A stretch of DNA of 62,273 nt from the IMG/VR virus record IMGVR_UViG_3300046054_000005, positions 1 through 62,273 of that record. The stretch is one strand, 5' to 3'. The notes beneath the pieces were generated by a model. That model was not told where the DNA came from and made no database searches. It saw only the letters and a program-made list of their open reading frames with translations. The number at the start of each line of letters is the position of its first letter. Positions within the stretch are counted from its first letter, which is position 1. Positions 19,744 through 48,115 of the stretch are shown one piece after another. This DNA comes from a virus. A program made the position numbers and the translations under genes.

Positions 19744-19805
19744 TACTGCGACTGCGCCCGCGCCGCGCAGTTTCGGCCCCAACCAAAGGGCCTCATCAGG
19801 CAGCA
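19744..19805 (-). ncRNA. Hammerhead ribozyme candidate, type I.
   Basis: Minus-strand RNA: UGCUGC CUGAUGA GGCCC-UUUGGUUG-GGGCC GAAA CUGCGC-GGCGCGG-GCGCAG UC^GCAGUA. The core UGA is the stop of ORF 19796..20050. Confidence 0.75.
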
Positions 19806-22161: not shown

Positions 22162-22248
22162 TCGGACAGAGCGTCCGGCGGGCTGTACCGCGACGCCCCC
22201 TTCACGGAGAGGGCGTTTCGGGTGCGGCCAACACCCTCATCAGGCAGC
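22162..22248 (-). ncRNA. Hammerhead ribozyme candidate, type I, followed by a 3' flanking hairpin.
   Basis: Minus-strand RNA: GCUGC CUGAUGA GGGUG-UUGGCCG-CACCC GAAA CGCCCUCU-CCGUGA-AGGGGGCG UC^GCGGU, then hairpin CGGAC-GCUCU-GUCCG. The core UGA is the stop of the 22240..22500 gene. Confidence 0.75.
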
Positions 22249-27284: not shown

Positions 27285-27699
27285 CTCGCTCCGCAACATC
27301 CTCGGGGACGACCTCGATTGGGCGAAGCAAGAGAACCTGCTGGGTGAACACCTCGACGCCGTGCAGGGCGTTGCTGAACATTTTGGGTTGGACCTCGAAC
27401 CGGAGCGCGTCAAGACGCTCGTTCGGGGCCTCTCCCTGCACAAACTCACGAAGCGCCAGACCGTGAACGCAGTGCGCCTCCTGCTGCATGACACCGATTT
27501 CAAAGAGGGCCTGCGATATGGGGCGACCTTGCAGGCGCTTGACTTCGTGATCGTATTGCCGGAGGACGGAGCCTACTACACCGAACGACAGGTGGACCGC
27601 TTCGACCGCCTGACGGACTACGAGAAAAGCGTAGACTTTCACAAGGTCGGAGGCCCCGGCGAGAGAGACTGGATCTTCGATGCACCAAACACACCATGA
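27214..27699 (+). CDS. Hypothetical protein (helicase-loader position).
   Basis: 161-aa ORF with a single ATG, overlapping the initiator gene by 71 nt. Its ATGA overlaps the DnaB start. Confidence 0.4.
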   Translation: MSNSPKQRDENAISQKLARTSGSNSLRNILGDDLDWAKQENLLGEHLDAVQGVAEHFGLDLEPERVKTLVRGLSLHKLTKRQTVNAVRLLLHDTDFKEGLRYGATLQALDFVIVLPEDGAYYTERQVDRFDRLTDYEKSVDFHKVGGPGERDWIFDAPNTP

Positions 27700-29069: not shown

Positions 29070-29140
29070 AGAATGCTTTTTTTGCGAAACAACTTCTACC
29101 AAGTCACATTTACCCTCTCGCAGAAACGCCAAACACACCA

Positions 29141-33785: not shown

Positions 33786-34076
33786 ATGACAATGAACTAC
33801 GAGAACCTACCCGGCCCGGTCGATCCAATCTGGGCGGGTGACTGCACTCGTCGAGTGGTGCCCTACCTTCCTCCTCGCGCAGAGGTATTGGCGGTGAAGC
33901 AGAAGGGGCCAAGCACGGCAGTGTACATCAACTGCACTCCGGCTCTTGGCGAAGGCGCAACTCGACGTCTCGCCAGTGCCCTCCAGCACGATCCGGCGTT
34001 TAAAGAGCTATTCCACTTCACGCAGGGTCGCGAGATGGCCGTATATTTTACCACACCCAGCGGGGTGAAGCTCTGA
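33786..34076 (+). CDS. Hypothetical protein.
   Basis: 96-aa ORF. Its last 17 nt overlap the tRNA-like gene. Confidence 0.45.
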   Translation: MTMNYENLPGPVDPIWAGDCTRRVVPYLPPRAEVLAVKQKGPSTAVYINCTPALGEGATRRLASALQHDPAFKELFHFTQGREMAVYFTTPSGVKL

Positions 34077-34134
34077 TGGTACGAGCGCTGGCCTTCCAAG
34101 CCAGAGGTTGCAGGTTCGACTCCTGCCCCCCGCT
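34060..34134 (+). tRNA. tRNA-Gly(UCC)-like gene with an irregular acceptor/D junction.
   Basis: Manual cloverleaf. D stem gctc/gagc with GG in the loop. Anticodon stem ctggc/gccag with loop cTTCCaa. Variable loop aggtt. T arm gcagg-ttcgact-cctgc. The acceptor has 6 GC pairs plus one extra or mismatched nucleotide. No CCA is encoded. Confidence 0.5.
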
Positions 34135-34146
34135 CCCCATAAAACC

Positions 34147-35331: not shown

Positions 35332-36081
35332 ATGCTTACCGAGATAGACGTACAGTTCTATATCGGGTTGCACCACGTCTGCGACGCACAGCACTTCGCT
35401 CGGTGTATGTTGAGCGTCAACGCACTGTCCCGGCGGAAGTCCGACTTCGAAGCTGGGCAGTGGGTGATGGACAGTGGAGCCTTTACGGAGGTATCCCGGC
35501 ACGGCACACATCGCCGCAGCGTCAAGGAATACGCCGCTCAAGTCCGGCGGTGGAGCCGGTGCGGTGATCTTTTGGCGGCGGTATCTCAAGACTGGATGTG
35601 CGAATCGTTTGTCCTCCAGAAGACGGGGATGACCACCGAGGAGCACCAAGCACGCACAGTGGACCGATACGACCGCTTGATGAGCGCCGATACCGGAGAG
35701 GTCTACATCATGCCTGTACTGCAAGGGTATGAGCCGGAGGAATACGTGCGAAACGTTCGGCAGTATGGCGGGCGGTTGTCAGAAGGCGCGTGGGTGGGTG
35801 TCGGCTCTGTGTGCAAAAGGAACGGCAGCATCAAGGCGGTAGAGGCGGTACTGTCGCGGATACATGCCGTACGCCCCGACTTGCGCCTGCACGGGTTCGG
35901 GCTGAAAAAGACCGCGCTGCGGTCCCATCTGGTGCGCAAGTGCCTGTATTCGGCAGACTCGATGGCGTGGAGCTACCGGGCTCGCAGGCAGGAGGGCAGA
36001 GACGCGAACGACTGGCGAGAAGCGCGCCGGTACTTGCGCGAGATCGAATCCATGCCGCTCCAGACCAACCTTTTCGCGTGA
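35332..36081 (+). CDS. dpdA: DpdA-like (TGT-fold) DNA guanine transglycosylase candidate (7-deazaguanine DNA modification).
   Basis: Ordered motifs VMDSGAF, MPVLQGY, GVGSVCKR, LHGFGLKK and ADSMAWSY, as in TGT/DpdA-family proteins. Confidence 0.55.
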   Translation: MLTEIDVQFYIGLHHVCDAQHFARCMLSVNALSRRKSDFEAGQWVMDSGAFTEVSRHGTHRRSVKEYAAQVRRWSRCGDLLAAVSQDWMCESFVLQKTGMTTEEHQARTVDRYDRLMSADTGEVYIMPVLQGYEPEEYVRNVRQYGGRLSEGAWVGVGSVCKRNGSIKAVEAVLSRIHAVRPDLRLHGFGLKKTALRSHLVRKCLYSADSMAWSYRARRQEGRDANDWREARRYLREIESMPLQTNLFA

Positions 36082-40058: not shown

Positions 40059-40122
40059 GCCGTGACCGGAGGGGAGTGCCCCCCCCGGTTTCGCCTCGTT
40101 CCCGCGAGGCTCGTCAGGCGGC
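40059..40122 (-). ncRNA. Hammerhead ribozyme candidate, type I (A.C mismatch at the first stem I pair).
   Basis: Minus-strand RNA: GCCGC CUGACGA GCCUCG-CGGGAA-CGAGGC GAAA CCGGGGGGG-GCACU-CCCCUCCGG UC^ACGGC. The core UGA is the stop of ORF 40114..40500. Confidence 0.6.
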
Positions 40123-40526: not shown

Positions 40527-40599
40527 GGTAGCGAGGTGCTACCGCGACCGGGGGAGTGTCCCCCGGTTTCGCCGCGCTTTCAGCGGCTCATCAGGCGGC
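40527..40599 (-). ncRNA. Hammerhead ribozyme candidate, type I, with a conserved 3' flanking hairpin.
   Basis: Minus-strand RNA: GCCGC CUGAUGA GCCGC-UGAAAGC-GCGGC GAAA CCGGGGG-ACACU-CCCCCGG UC^GCGGU, then GGUAGC-ACCUC-GCUACC. It starts directly after the TAA stop of ORF 40600..40818. Confidence 0.75.
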
Positions 40600-41847: not shown

Positions 41848-42644
41848 ATGGCGAGTGACGTACCCTTTGAAATCGAGTTCGTCGCAACAGACGACCTCAA
41901 AGATCACCCTCGCAATTACCGCAAGCACCCGTCGTCGCAGATCGACGAGATTATACGCAGCATCGAGAATCACGACGTATATCGCAACGTCGTCATTTCA
42001 GCAGACGGGTATATCTTAGCAGGCCACGGTGTTCGTGAGGCTATGAGCCAGATGGGTAGAGACGTCGTGCCCGTCTACCGGATGGGGTACGATCATGATT
42101 CTCCAAAGGCGATCAAGCTGCTGGCTGGTGATAATGAGATCGCGAATCTTGCAGAGAACAGCCACGAGCAGTTGGTAGAACTACTGCGAGAGATTCACGA
42201 GAGCAACGAGGGGGGGGGCTATCAGGCACAGGGTATAACGCTGACACACTGGCTGACCTTCAGGAAGAGGTCGCAGGTGAAAGCGAAGAAGTAACGTATT
42301 CCCGTAAGATCGACACGCCGGTTTACGAGATACGCAGTGATCAGCCCGAGGTGCAAGAACTCTACGATAGTGAGAAGGCCGATGAACTGAAAGCAGAGAT
42401 TGAAGAAGCCGACGTACCGCAGGAGGTGGCTGCCTTTCTCACAGTCGCAGCAGAGCGCCACACAAAGTTCGACTTCGAGAACATCGCGGAGTTTTACGCC
42501 CATGCGTCTGCCGACGTACAGCGGCTTATGGAACGGTCTGCCCTCGTCGTGATCGACTTCGATCAGGCTATCGAAGAGGGGTACGTTCAGGTATCCGAAG
42601 AGCTTCTTGCCCAGGCAGCAGCAACTAAAGATGAAAATGAATAA
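41848..42644 (+). CDS. ParB-like nuclease-domain protein split by a frameshift at a G9 tract (42210-42218).
   Basis: Track ORF 41848..42294 carries ParB N-domain motifs (HPRNYRKH ... ILAGHGV). After the G9 run the -1 frame stays open to 42644 and reads GTGYNADTLADLQEE..., a typical continuation for ParB-domain proteins. Confidence 0.55.
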
Positions 42645-43500
42645 CTTTTGCGCGGTGATCGTCACGTATGACCGCGCCGACAACGTGCGGACTTACGATA
42701 CGCTGAAACGTCTCGGCTACACGGGCGATATTATTCTGCTCGTAGACGACGAAGACCCGCAGCTCGAAGAATACCGAAAGCAGTTCGGTGACGAGGTATA
42801 CGTGTTCTCGAAAGAAAAAGCAGCGCAGCACACCGATGCTGGTACGAACAGCGGCCAACGTAACTCGCCCTTATTCGCCCGCAACGTGATCTTTGACGCC
42901 GTGCGCGAACGGGGTTACGATTACTTCGTCATGCTCGACGACGATTACAGTGCCTTTTATTATCGCTTCGCAGGCGAGGGTAAATACGGCTTCTGGATGG
43001 CCGAAGACCTGGACGGCCTGTTCTCCTCGTTAGTCAACTACCTTAAAAGTGCGGAGGCGATTACGTGCCTCGCTATCTCGCAGGGAGGCGATCACATCGG
43101 CGGTGGCGAGAACACACGTAATCAGATGATCGGGCACGTGCGAAAAATTATGAATACCTACATCTGTTCGGTAGACCGTCCGTTCAGGTTTAAGGGCATC
43201 CTGAACGACGACGTGAATACGTACGTTAACCTCGGCAACAAGGGGCACGTCTTCTTGTCGTTGCAAGCGGCGCAGATTACACAGAGCATGACGCAGCAGA
43301 ACGAGGGCGGCCTTACGGACCTCTACATCGACGTAGGGACGTACGTGAAATCATTTTTTACCGTTATGTACGGACCAAGCTGCACGAACATCAGGCACCT
43401 GTGCGACGCACGAGGAAACAGCGCTGGCCGTTTACACCATGAGATCAGATGGCGCTACGCCGTCCCAAAGATCATCCGCGAGAAGCACCGCAAAACCTAA
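42631..43500 (+). CDS. GT-A-like glycosyltransferase candidate.
   Basis: The N-terminal CAVIVTYDRADN ... ILLVDDEDP ... FVMLDDDY (DxD) layout is Rossmann-like. The start is ambiguous (42631 or 42637). Confidence 0.4.
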   Translation: MKMNNFCAVIVTYDRADNVRTYDTLKRLGYTGDIILLVDDEDPQLEEYRKQFGDEVYVFSKEKAAQHTDAGTNSGQRNSPLFARNVIFDAVRERGYDYFVMLDDDYSAFYYRFAGEGKYGFWMAEDLDGLFSSLVNYLKSAEAITCLAISQGGDHIGGGENTRNQMIGHVRKIMNTYICSVDRPFRFKGILNDDVNTYVNLGNKGHVFLSLQAAQITQSMTQQNEGGLTDLYIDVGTYVKSFFTVMYGPSCTNIRHLCDARGNSAGRLHHEIRWRYAVPKIIREKHRKT

Positions 43501-46742: not shown

Positions 46743-47183
46743 TTAGGGGGTGTTCTGCTTGTGGAATCGAATCAGCCGTCGCACACCCGTCGTAGCGCTG
46801 TCCCCGCCAACGTCTTCTACGTATTGCTTTTGGGCAGGCGTCAGGCTGGCCGTTAGGTGGACGCGCGTGCTGCCGCCCCGCTTCTTCCGGCCCGCGCCCT
46901 CACGCTCGCCCCCGTGGTTCGTGTCGGGCATAGGTGGGGTCTCTATCGTGACGGCCCCCAGCCTATCACCACGGTGTATAGCAACACCGCGGTGTACAGC
47001 AACAGTCAACGTATCGCCGGGGTCAGCTGCGTTCAAGGCATCGCGCCACTTCATAGGGTCGCCTTGCGGCTCGTCGCCAAAGTAAGCGCGGTACGTATAC
47101 CCGGCGCCGTGCGAAAGACCCGCCTCTTCGCACGCCTCTTTAAACCGGGATCGTATTTTACGTTTGAGGGCGGTACGGCTCAT
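46743..47183 (-). CDS. Hypothetical protein with a basic GAGRKKRGG segment.
   Basis: 146-aa ORF. Confidence 0.5.
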   Translation of the reverse strand: MSRTALKRKIRSRFKEACEEAGLSHGAGYTYRAYFGDEPQGDPMKWRDALNAADPGDTLTVAVHRGVAIHRGDRLGAVTIETPPMPDTNHGGEREGAGRKKRGGSTRVHLTASLTPAQKQYVEDVGGDSATTGVRRLIRFHKQNTP

Positions 47184-47413
47184 GAGATGTAGTCGTCGAG
47201 TGCGTCAATGGTCTTGTCCACGCTCAAGCCGCCGTGCGCTTGCACGAACACCTCGAACCCGGCGTCGTCAGCGTATTCGAGGATGACGATCTGCTGGCCG
47301 GGGTGGGCCGGGGAGACGTAGTAGTGCGTCCGATTTCCAGTGCCGTCGTCGTGCACGGTCTTCTGCGTGAAGTCGTTCTCGTGAAGCCAGTCCTTGAGGA
47401 TCGGCGTAATCAT
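47180..47413 (-). CDS. Hypothetical small protein.
   Basis: Start taken at MITPILKDW (47413), downstream of the ribozyme and the CA-rich leader. Confidence 0.45.
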   Translation of the reverse strand: MITPILKDWLHENDFTQKTVHDDGTGNRTHYYVSPAHPGQQIVILEYADDAGFEVFVQAHGGLSVDKTIDALDDYIS

Positions 47414-47439
47414 GGTAGTGTGGTGTGTTTGGTGAAAAT

Positions 47440-47509
47440 GGTAGCGAGGCGCTACCGCGACGCGCACCCACCTGCGCGTTTCGCCTCTCGCGGAGGCTCA
47501 TCAGGCGGC
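47440..47509 (-). ncRNA. Hammerhead ribozyme candidate, type I, with a conserved 3' flanking hairpin.
   Basis: Minus-strand RNA: GCCGC CUGAUGA GCCUC-CGCGA-GAGGC GAAA CGCGC-AGGUGGGU-GCGCG UC^GCGGU, then GGUAGC-GCCUC-GCUACC. The core UGA is the stop of the 47501..47980 gene. Confidence 0.75.
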
Positions 47510-47980
47510 TTCGAGCGATACATCGCTCGGCTTGTGGGGTCCCCATTCGCCTACCTTGATAGAGAGCGCCTTTTCCACGCGCTCCTCGTCGAGGTCGAGT
47601 TCGTTGGCGATCCTGCGGACAGTAGCAGCGAGGTCCTTGATGGCCGTCCGGCGACCTTCCTCCACGTCTTCCTCCATGCCTTTGGGCGCTTCGGCGGGCG
47701 CTCCCCGCAGCGCGGCGACCATTTCGCGGCGGTAAAGGCTGGCGGCGTGCTCGGCCAGTTCGATGAGGTCGTCCCGGCTGGACACGTCCACGTCGTCAGC
47801 GGCGTTGATAACACTCTGCATCGAGCGGTTGCGCTGCGACTCGCGGACGGCGGCAGCACTTTGCTGACGGAGAGCGTCAATGACGTGGAAGTCATTGAGC
47901 TTGTCCTGGAGCGCCTCCTTCTTATTGGTACGGAAGGTGAGGTAATAGTCGATGGTAGAGTTGATGGCTTGAGTGTCCAT
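47501..47980 (-). CDS. Hypothetical protein.
   Basis: Start taken at MDTQAINST inside track ORF 47501..48079. Confidence 0.5.
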   Translation of the reverse strand: MDTQAINSTIDYYLTFRTNKKEALQDKLNDFHVIDALRQQSAAAVRESQRNRSMQSVINAADDVDVSSRDDLIELAEHAASLYRREMVAALRGAPAEAPKGMEEDVEEGRRTAIKDLAATVRRIANELDLDEERVEKALSIKVGEWGPHKPSDVSLEAA

Positions 47981-48115
47981 TGTAGGAAAGGGTGTGAGTG
48001 TGTTAGTGAGAGTGCGAGGGGCGGTTCCCCTTTGTTGTGTTAGGGTAAAGGCATTATGACAGAAGGGGTTTCCCTGCAAAAGCCTTTTAATACACTCTTT
48101 ACATTCTATTCAAGT
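47981..48115 (-). promoter_or_regulatory. Conserved early promoter/leader module, copy 5.
   Basis: Minus-strand TTGAAT (48113-48108), 17 nt, TTAAAA (48090-48085), then GGCTTTTGCAGGGAAACCCC and TTTACCCTAACACAAC. Confidence 0.6.

Follow-up and report, generated by a model that had tools for sequence, protein, structure and literature searches.

Six predicted type I hammerhead ribozymes between the genes of an uncultured tailed phage, most with a core that holds the stop codon of the upstream gene

Self-cleaving hammerhead RNAs of phages and prophages have been described by Perreault et al. 2011 (PMC3088659), whose accessible text reports clustered representatives of types I, II and III, including a triple arrangement that flanks ardA in Agrobacterium tumefaciens. 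According to the same text, these RNAs cleave in vitro and in E. coli, and their proposed role is to convert long phage transcripts into gene-length mRNAs. Here we consider a hammerhead, called copy A, that an initial annotation had placed on the minus strand of a stretch of 62,273 nucleotides (positions 1 to 62,273 of IMG/VR virus record IMGVR_UViG_3300046054_000005, hereafter the window). Copy A is very probably a genuine type I hammerhead self-cleaving ribozyme and one of six paralogs that are carried in promoter-led minus-strand operons of an uncultured tailed phage with a genome of about 62 kb.

The window copies resemble the published clusters in their consensus core, their variable stems, and the presence of several copies on the coding strand that flank single genes or short gene blocks. 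They differ in being new sequences, known from sequence alone, and in their relation to stop codons, a term that does not occur in the accessible text of PMC3088659. The predicted placement of copy A among the known phage type I hammerheads that lie between cistrons is well supported.

A second close example is HHphage of haloviruses HF1 and HF2, which lies 13 nt upstream of an early ATP-dependent DNA helicase gene and is accompanied by a mapped transcript 5′ end no more than 3 nt from the cleavage site (PMC3088659, accessible text). Copy C of the window is likewise located before a helicase gene (UvrD-like), which starts 35 nt past the cleavage site. However, HHphage resides in an archaeal virus, has a variant core that needs high Mg2+, is present as a single copy, and has no stop-codon overlap reported in that text. 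A 2019 review (PMC6765202) states that the purpose of bacterial and phage hammerheads needs more work, and a 2026 preprint mentions that ribozyme cores are enriched for stop triplets, with no more on the subject. The window and a sister genome described below provide six clean, covarying and orthologous examples with defined promoter-like elements and leaders. Their value is that of a test system for the interplay of ribosome and ribozyme, rather than that of a new type of element.

Structure and conservation of the six copies

The minus strand from 47509 to 47440 matches the letter-by-letter reading of the initial annotation exactly, and every invariant hammerhead core position is present (CUGAUGA, then GAAA, then U-C; Table 1). 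The pairs that flank the core are C-G (1.1-2.1), G-C (10.1-11.1), and A-U (15.1-16.1), and pairs directly beside the core at these positions served as a filter in Perreault et al. 2011 (PMC3088659, accessible text). The topology is type I, with stem I open, stems II and III closed by hairpin loops, and elements arranged in the order I5′-core-II-GAAA-III-UH-I3′. Stems II and III had both been described as 5 bp long, which is correct for stem II, whereas stem III comprises 7 bp when the A15.1-U16.1 pair is included and is closed by a 6-nt loop. The earlier call of a type I hammerhead stands, given that the core, the three helices, covariation, the minimum free energy (MFE) fold, and the orthologs in the sister genome all agree with it. 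The hammerhead junction is the MFE fold in each of copies A through E, which were the five copies folded.

Table 1. Positions of copy A, its parts and its flanking features, and of the other five hammerhead copies (all on the minus strand of the window; aa, amino acids; ORF, open reading frame)
Feature	Positions	Sequence or remarks
Copy A, type I hammerhead	47454..47509	Direct reading, motif scan, fold, covariance model
Copy A stem I, 5′ strand	47509-47505	GCCGC; pairs with GCGGU at 47458-47454
Copy A core, C3-A9	47504-47498	CUGAUGA
Stop codon of upstream gene, U4-G5-A6 of copy A core	47501..47503	UGA; last codons GCC GCC UGA; second in-frame UGA at 47500-47498
Copy A stem II hairpin	47497-47483	GCCUC-CGCGA-GAGGC; 5 bp
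Copy A G12-A15.1	47482-47479	GAAA
Copy A stem III hairpin	47478-47461	CGCGCA-GGUGGG-UGCGCG
Copy A U16.1	47460	
Copy A C17	47459	Predicted scissile bond between 47459 and 47458
Copy A stem I, 3′ strand	47458-47454	GCGGU
Hairpin at 5′ end of predicted 3′ cleavage product	47440..47456	GGUAGCG-CCU-CGCUACC
CA-rich leader	47414..47439	Contains CCAAACAC motif (47432-47425); precedes ATG 47413
Gene upstream of copy A	47501..47980	159 aa, ending in SLEAA; no family match; first cistron of unit
Gene downstream of copy A	47180..47413	77 aa; no family match
Promoter-like repeat	48025..48079	TTGCAGGGAAACCCCT-N7-TAATG, then AACACAACAAAGGGGAA
Copy B	40541..40599	C17 at 40546; 3′ hairpin and leader of the copy A type
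Copy C	40059..40122	Core CUGACGA; C17 at 40064
Stop codon of ORF upstream of copy C	40116-40114	128 aa; ends GCC GCC UGA; UGA is U4-G5-A6
Copy D	22187..22248	C17 at 22192
Stop codon of ORF upstream of copy D	22242-22240	Ends GCU GCC UGA (protein ends in DDWFAA)
Copy E	19744..19805	C17 at 19750
Stop codon of ORF upstream of copy E	19798-19796	84 aa; ends GCU GCC UGA
Copy F	18556..18606	Core CUGAAGA; C17 at 18560
Stop codon of ORF upstream of copy F	18601-18599	160 aa; ends UCC GCC UGA

All six copies that the initial annotation had counted are recovered, with cores that start at 47504 (A), 40594 (B), 40117 (C), 22243 (D), 19799 (E), and 18602 (F). In a strict scan, a motif had to contain the core, GAAA, and UH together with three helices, each unbroken over 3 bp or more. 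Four complete type I motifs passed, and every one is on the minus strand. The chance expectation from 200 first-order Markov simulations is 0.02 complete motifs per window for both strands together. A looser scan added copy C. When a covariance model made from copies A through E was run on the 62 kb without filters, the five training copies scored 65-79 bits, and copy F, which had not been used for training, was found at 18553-18609 with 34.8 bits (E = 1.5e-7). The next best match reached 12.9 bits. RNAalifold places 18 pairs, 11 of which are compensatory.

A sister genome (JGI 3300046055 Ga0496807_00036, 62,193 bp) was identified in a protein search that used the product of the gene before copy A, and in this genome the covariance model detects orthologs of all six hammerheads. 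The ortholog of copy A has loop II changed from CGCGA to CACGA and one A-U pair of stem III changed to G-C, and the ortholog of copy C has a C-G pair at the site of C•A in the window. The stem III of the copy D ortholog is wholly different and shorter (UGCC/GGCA). In the ortholog of copy F, the extra U that follows A9 is retained, N7 is changed, and a G•U pair has become G-C. A further relative (L029, about 80% DNA identity) carries an ortholog of copy D with additional compensatory changes.

In an alignment of 10 paralogs and orthologs, 96.6% of the cells are paired with standard pairs, and double changes occur in 11 of the 18 pairs. The covariation score is 0.598 versus 0.175 with shuffled partners (0 of 500 shuffles reach the observed value) and does not exceed 0.279 with slid partners. 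None of the 10 sequences departs from the core nucleotides G5, A6, G8, A9, G12-A14, and C17, and N7 varies. An invariant core combined with freely changing stems is the signature of a functional hammerhead rather than that of a plain hairpin.

Several observations weigh against this assignment. Stem I of copy A has only 5 bp, and a complementarity search for tertiary partners of its loop II gave no convincing candidate. In the uncut 126-nt context of copy A, the MFE fold contains the downstream hairpin in place of stem I, and so the activity of copy A would depend on co-transcriptional folding. Copy C has a C•A mismatch at position 1.1/2.1 of stem I, beside the core, and copy F carries its extra U after A9 together with a stem I of 4 bp. 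Lastly, Rfam searches of the whole window and of two sub-regions, run in gathering and E-value modes, placed no family at its gathering score.

Under permissive settings, the best Rfam match is Hammerhead_3 (RF00008; gathering score 48.5), with which copies A, B, and C score 16.9, 25, and 16.7 bits, respectively, and only RF00008 alignments were reported among the matches listed. In these alignments the core (CUGANGA...GAAA) and stem II fit, and a type III stem is drawn from flanking sequence. The likeness of the copies to clan CL00010 (RF00008 Hammerhead_3, Hammerhead_1, Hammerhead_II, HH9, and HH10) thus consists of the core and stem II, whereas the type III model is unable to place stems I and III of a type I fold. 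The initial annotation had listed a sub-threshold covariance-model score as an outcome that would speak against a hammerhead. Such a score is formally what was obtained, but we judge it uninformative because the wrong (type III) topology is forced on the motif. Since the direct structural and comparative evidence is strong, we take the sub-threshold score as a limit of the library model, and Rfam thresholds miss the present group of phage type I hammerheads. These low scores are also what might favor a chance resemblance in GC-rich sequence. This explanation is hardly credible, given 0.02 expected motifs versus four copies from the strict scan and six with support from the covariance model. 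Each copy lies between cistrons on the coding strand, their structure is supported by covariation, and they are conserved six for six in the sister genome.

A tertiary contact that links the regions of stems I and II gives hammerheads fast cleavage at physiological Mg2+. Complementarity between loop II and the sequence just 3′ of stem I is evident in copies other than A. Loop II of copy E (UUGGUU) is complementary over 6 bp to AACCAA (19749-19735), that of copy F (GUGAU) over 5 bp to GUCAC (18559-18545), and that of copy B over 6 bp to its 3′ tail. The sister orthologs of copies E and F have 5 bp of such complementarity in a shifted register (L251 ~12390-12410 and ~13590-13610), and the sister ortholog of copy B has a perfect 6 bp. 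This suggests that a pseudoknot between loop II and the 3′ tail might serve as a tertiary contact in copies E and F.

The gene modules downstream of copies A and B have been reciprocally exchanged between the window (47413-47180 and 40500-40114) and the sister genome (L246 2378-2620 and 10562-10948). The sister genome carries the gene upstream of copy A, a hammerhead, a 128-aa gene, a hammerhead, and the helicase gene in one series, and a 72-aa gene, a hammerhead, and an 80-aa gene in another; the window has the opposite pairing. The sister homolog of the 77-aa gene follows the ortholog of copy B rather than that of copy A. The leader of copy B in the window appears to be a chimera, with a junction inside the shared CA-rich leader.

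The swapping of modules beside the hammerheads and within this leader, the GC-rich stems, and the deviations of copies C and F from the strict consensus might indicate elements that no longer cleave. These could act as structured RNAs (3′ stabilizers or translational-coupling barriers) or as patches of DNA homology for module exchange. However, the core is invariant in 10 of 10 sequences while the stems change freely, which is the pattern expected for catalysis, and the sole recombination junction that can be traced (copy B) lies in the leader and not in the ribozyme. Loss of cleavage therefore seems very unlikely to us.

Relative to L029, the window has an insertion (23286-22249) between the SNF2 helicase gene and copy D that contains a promoter-like repeat and two genes, one assigned to PHROG 18108 (23155-22595) and the other coding for 86 aa. 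Homologs of the 104-aa gene downstream of copy D, at 48-70% amino acid identity, have no hammerhead in the upstream spacer, and so the array appears to be confined to a narrow clade. Hammerheads are also absent from DUF932 homologs on three contigs and from relatives of the portal gene at 27-37% identity in IMG/VR, JGI metagenome contigs, and GTDB genomes. Because these three sets of relatives carry no hammerhead, the array is, by this comparison, either young or rapidly turned over.

Predicted cleavage of the polycistronic RNA

At RNase III sites between the early genes of phage T7, the transcript is cut between cistrons, which gives the upstream RNA a structured 3′ end and allows neighboring cistrons to have separate fates. 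These cuts need a host protein and leave a 5′-phosphate and a 3′-OH, whereas a hammerhead acts autonomously and leaves a 5′-OH and a 2′,3′-cyclic phosphate. RNase III processing in T7 is a functional analogy for the window hammerheads. The most likely role of copy A is the cutting of polycistronic mRNA.

The ribozyme would fold once the 3′ strand of stem I has been transcribed and would cut after C17 (47459), as predicted from established hammerhead chemistry and from the accessible text of Perreault et al. 2011 (PMC3088659). With a type I topology, the upstream RNA would retain both the stop codon and the complete ribozyme. Translation of this RNA would terminate normally, and its 3′ end would carry two stable hairpins and a 2′,3′-cyclic phosphate. 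The downstream RNA would begin with a 5′-OH, followed for copies A and B by a terminal hairpin and a CA-rich leader. In this manner, mRNAs that are separately stable and separately translated could arise from one transcript.

The 3′ product of copy A had been described as starting with a hairpin, followed by the CA-rich leader and the ATG at 47413. This description is accurate as far as it goes, and an overlap with stem I had to be added. Three nucleotides (GGU) are common to the hairpin and the 3′ strand of stem I, and for this reason the two structures compete. The copy A product folds at -10.8 kcal/mol (z = -3.87), with a hairpin formed by its first 19 nt, and the first 19 nt of the copy B product also form a hairpin (z = -2.9). 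Since the 3′ hairpin out-competes stem I in the uncut 126-nt RNA, a kinetic order is suggested for copies A and B, wherein the ribozyme would fold and cut before the 3′ hairpin forms and releases the product.

Stop codons at the edge of the ribozyme

The initial annotation assigned the core UGA at 47503-47501 as the stop codon of the 47501..47980 gene, and this is borne out by the end of the ORF (SLEAA, with GCC GCC UGA as the last codons). A fixed register with stop codons had been claimed for all copies. It holds for copies A, C, D, E, and F, wherein the core UGA is the stop, but not for copy B, whose 72-aa upstream ORF stops at a TAA (40602-40600) located 9 nt before the core UGA. The sequence GCC GCC UGA is nevertheless in frame there, and the sister ortholog of copy B has the same arrangement (TAA ACC GCC UGA). 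For the ORF upstream of copy D, the most likely start is ATG 22500, which is preceded by a CA-rich leader. Each of the six minus-strand copies occupies a spacer between a stop codon and a start codon and is located 35-62 nt ahead of the latter.

The genes upstream of the copies are mutually unrelated and vary between relatives, yet the register stays the same. The ortholog of copy D in L029 provides the stop codon of the SNF2 helicase gene, whose last codons are AAA GCC GCC UGA. In the sister genome, a 73%-identical homolog of the gene upstream of copy A likewise terminates at the UGA of a hammerhead core.

In IMG/VR, two pattern scans yielded at least 199 distinct complete motifs of type I-like hammerheads. 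The counts that follow are those among the matches listed by these scans, and the stop positions were assigned by simple ORF rules rather than by gene calls, which tempers the comparison. The longest upstream ORF stops on the core UGA in 23 of 97 and in 20 of 102 motifs. In a subset of 44 clear cases, defined by one frame open for at least 100 codons and the other two for at most 40, the stop is on the core UGA (offset 0) in 12, lies 8-13 nt upstream, against stem I, in 23, and lies further upstream (>15 nt) in 6. In the remaining 3, the ORF reads into the ribozyme. Frame 0 is thus used in 12 of 15 cases, whereas random frames would give a ratio of 1:2, with two thirds reading in (P = 2.9e-4). 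This frame bias therefore points to a constraint, if only the one that keeps ribosomes from crossing the ribozyme. The pattern suggests that ribosomes on the upstream gene stop at the 5′ edge of the ribozyme or shortly ahead of it, and hardly ever proceed through it.

In the IMG/VR sample, the next ORF starts a median of 31 nt past the cleavage site, and between 3 and 11 hammerheads are present on one strand in 20 of 237 sampled stretches. The core-UGA register recurs in other arrays, including L014 (4 of 4 copies), L045 (3 of 3), and L092 (most of 11), and five of the six copies of L182 are in a -9 register like that of copy B. The L092 sequence, an IMG/VR viral contig, carries eleven complete type I hammerheads within 13.6 kb of its minus strand and is denser than the array of the window.

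Six copies in register with stop codons had been considered unusual for one genome. This view is not sustained, as the same layout is frequent in the IMG/VR sample and contigs with 3-11 copies occur. Because stops on the core UGA or abutting the ribozyme are often seen in this sample, the layout of the window is typical of phage type I hammerheads. The stop-in-core register is real, yet it is a common layout that has apparently gone unremarked in the searchable literature. In open full-text literature, with subscription literature outside reach, we found no description of a hammerhead core UGA as the stop codon of a phage gene.

An active ribozyme might have acquired this register only through genome compaction and a forced UGA ending, with no functional consequence. 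The sequence CUGAUGA holds two in-frame UGA triplets, and thus termination is automatic. Moreover, phage spacers are generally short, as the median of 31 nt illustrates, and the register persists when the upstream genes differ between relatives, as seen for the SNF2 helicase gene of L029. A passive by-product of this kind is quite plausible, if still somewhat short of probable, and it does not readily explain why the frames are non-random, with 12 ORFs ending on the core UGA versus 3 reading in.

A ribosome positioned on the core UGA must, given known footprint sizes, open stem I and the core as well as part of stem II, which makes ribosome-dependent control of cleavage or of product release plausible. 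Heavy upstream translation might delay cleavage, or a terminating ribosome might strip the 3′ product from the ribozyme and make cleavage irreversible. Such gating would fit the stops on U4-G5-A6 in 5 of 6 window copies and in 12 of the 44 clear IMG/VR cases, the further 23 stops that fall within one ribosome footprint of stem I, and the retention of the register in the sister genome despite gene reshuffling. It would also fit the location of copies A and B after the first cistron behind a promoter-like repeat. However, genome compaction alone would give tight abutment too, the 6 clear cases with a stop more than 15 nt upstream indicate that ribosome contact is not obligatory, and there would be no kinetic effect if folding and cleavage outpace the arrival of the ribosome. 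We therefore view a ribosome-gated ribozyme as a tentative and rather unlikely proposal. It is similarly doubtful that a stop in or against the core represents a widespread, apparently undescribed design of phage type I hammerheads in which the terminating ribosome is part of the mechanism. If gating does occur, then translation of the upstream gene would set the fate of the downstream mRNA. For the simpler reading, in which copy A cuts a polycistronic RNA, the stop-at-ribozyme rule makes the idea of processing directly testable.

Promoter-like repeats, leaders, and neighboring genes

A promoter-like repeat, TTGCRNGGAAACCCCT-N7-TAATG followed by AACACAACAARGGGGAA, is found on the minus strand at 48079-48025, 40911-40857, and 23256-23202, and near 25345-25329 (minus) only its downstream half matches. 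The repeat precedes four minus-strand gene blocks and probably defines a class of phage promoter. The transcript with copy A presumably starts at the example located upstream of this hammerhead. Copies A and B each come after the first cistron that follows such a repeat.

The CCAAACAC motif occurs 12 times in the window versus 1.6 expected, and 0 of 100 shuffles reach 12. Its sites include 47432-47425, 40837-40830, 25310-25303, 20082-20075, and 19490-19483 on the minus strand and 27685-27692 and 29129-29136 on the plus strand. Several of the minus-strand sites are positioned roughly 10-25 nt 5′ of start codons, in CA-rich leaders without an obvious Shine-Dalgarno sequence, and the motif may be an unusual translation-initiation signal. 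We considered and rejected the possibility that it belongs to a ribozyme cassette, because it also precedes minus-strand starts that have no hammerhead (25290, 40818, 20050, and 19460). Since the motif is present with or without a hammerhead, it is therefore best regarded as a translation or leader signal of the phage rather than as part of the ribozyme.

Most flanking proteins obtain no function from Pfam or PHROGs. The exceptions include the UvrD-like helicase gene downstream of copy C and a DUF932-family gene downstream of copy F. The phage context of the window is indicated by a portal-like gene with homologs on viral contigs and by helicase, DnaB, and DpdA genes. A Megablast search of the region against INPHARED gave no match, and the nearest cultured phages (Thermus MN1 and phiLo, and Rhodothermus RM378) share about 36% amino acid identity in the SNF2 helicase.

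The window encodes one tRNA, tRNA-Gly(UCC), at 34059-34137 (+). As this is the sole tRNA, a phage-encoded suppressor of UGA was rejected. Genes for DNA hypermodification are located at 35332-36081 (+) and 42607-43500 (+) and correspond to DpdA (7-deazaguanine-in-DNA transglycosylase family) and a TET-associated glycosyltransferase. A Tet_JBP domain protein is encoded in the sister genome (L246 6925-7854), and the DNA of the phage is probably heavily modified.

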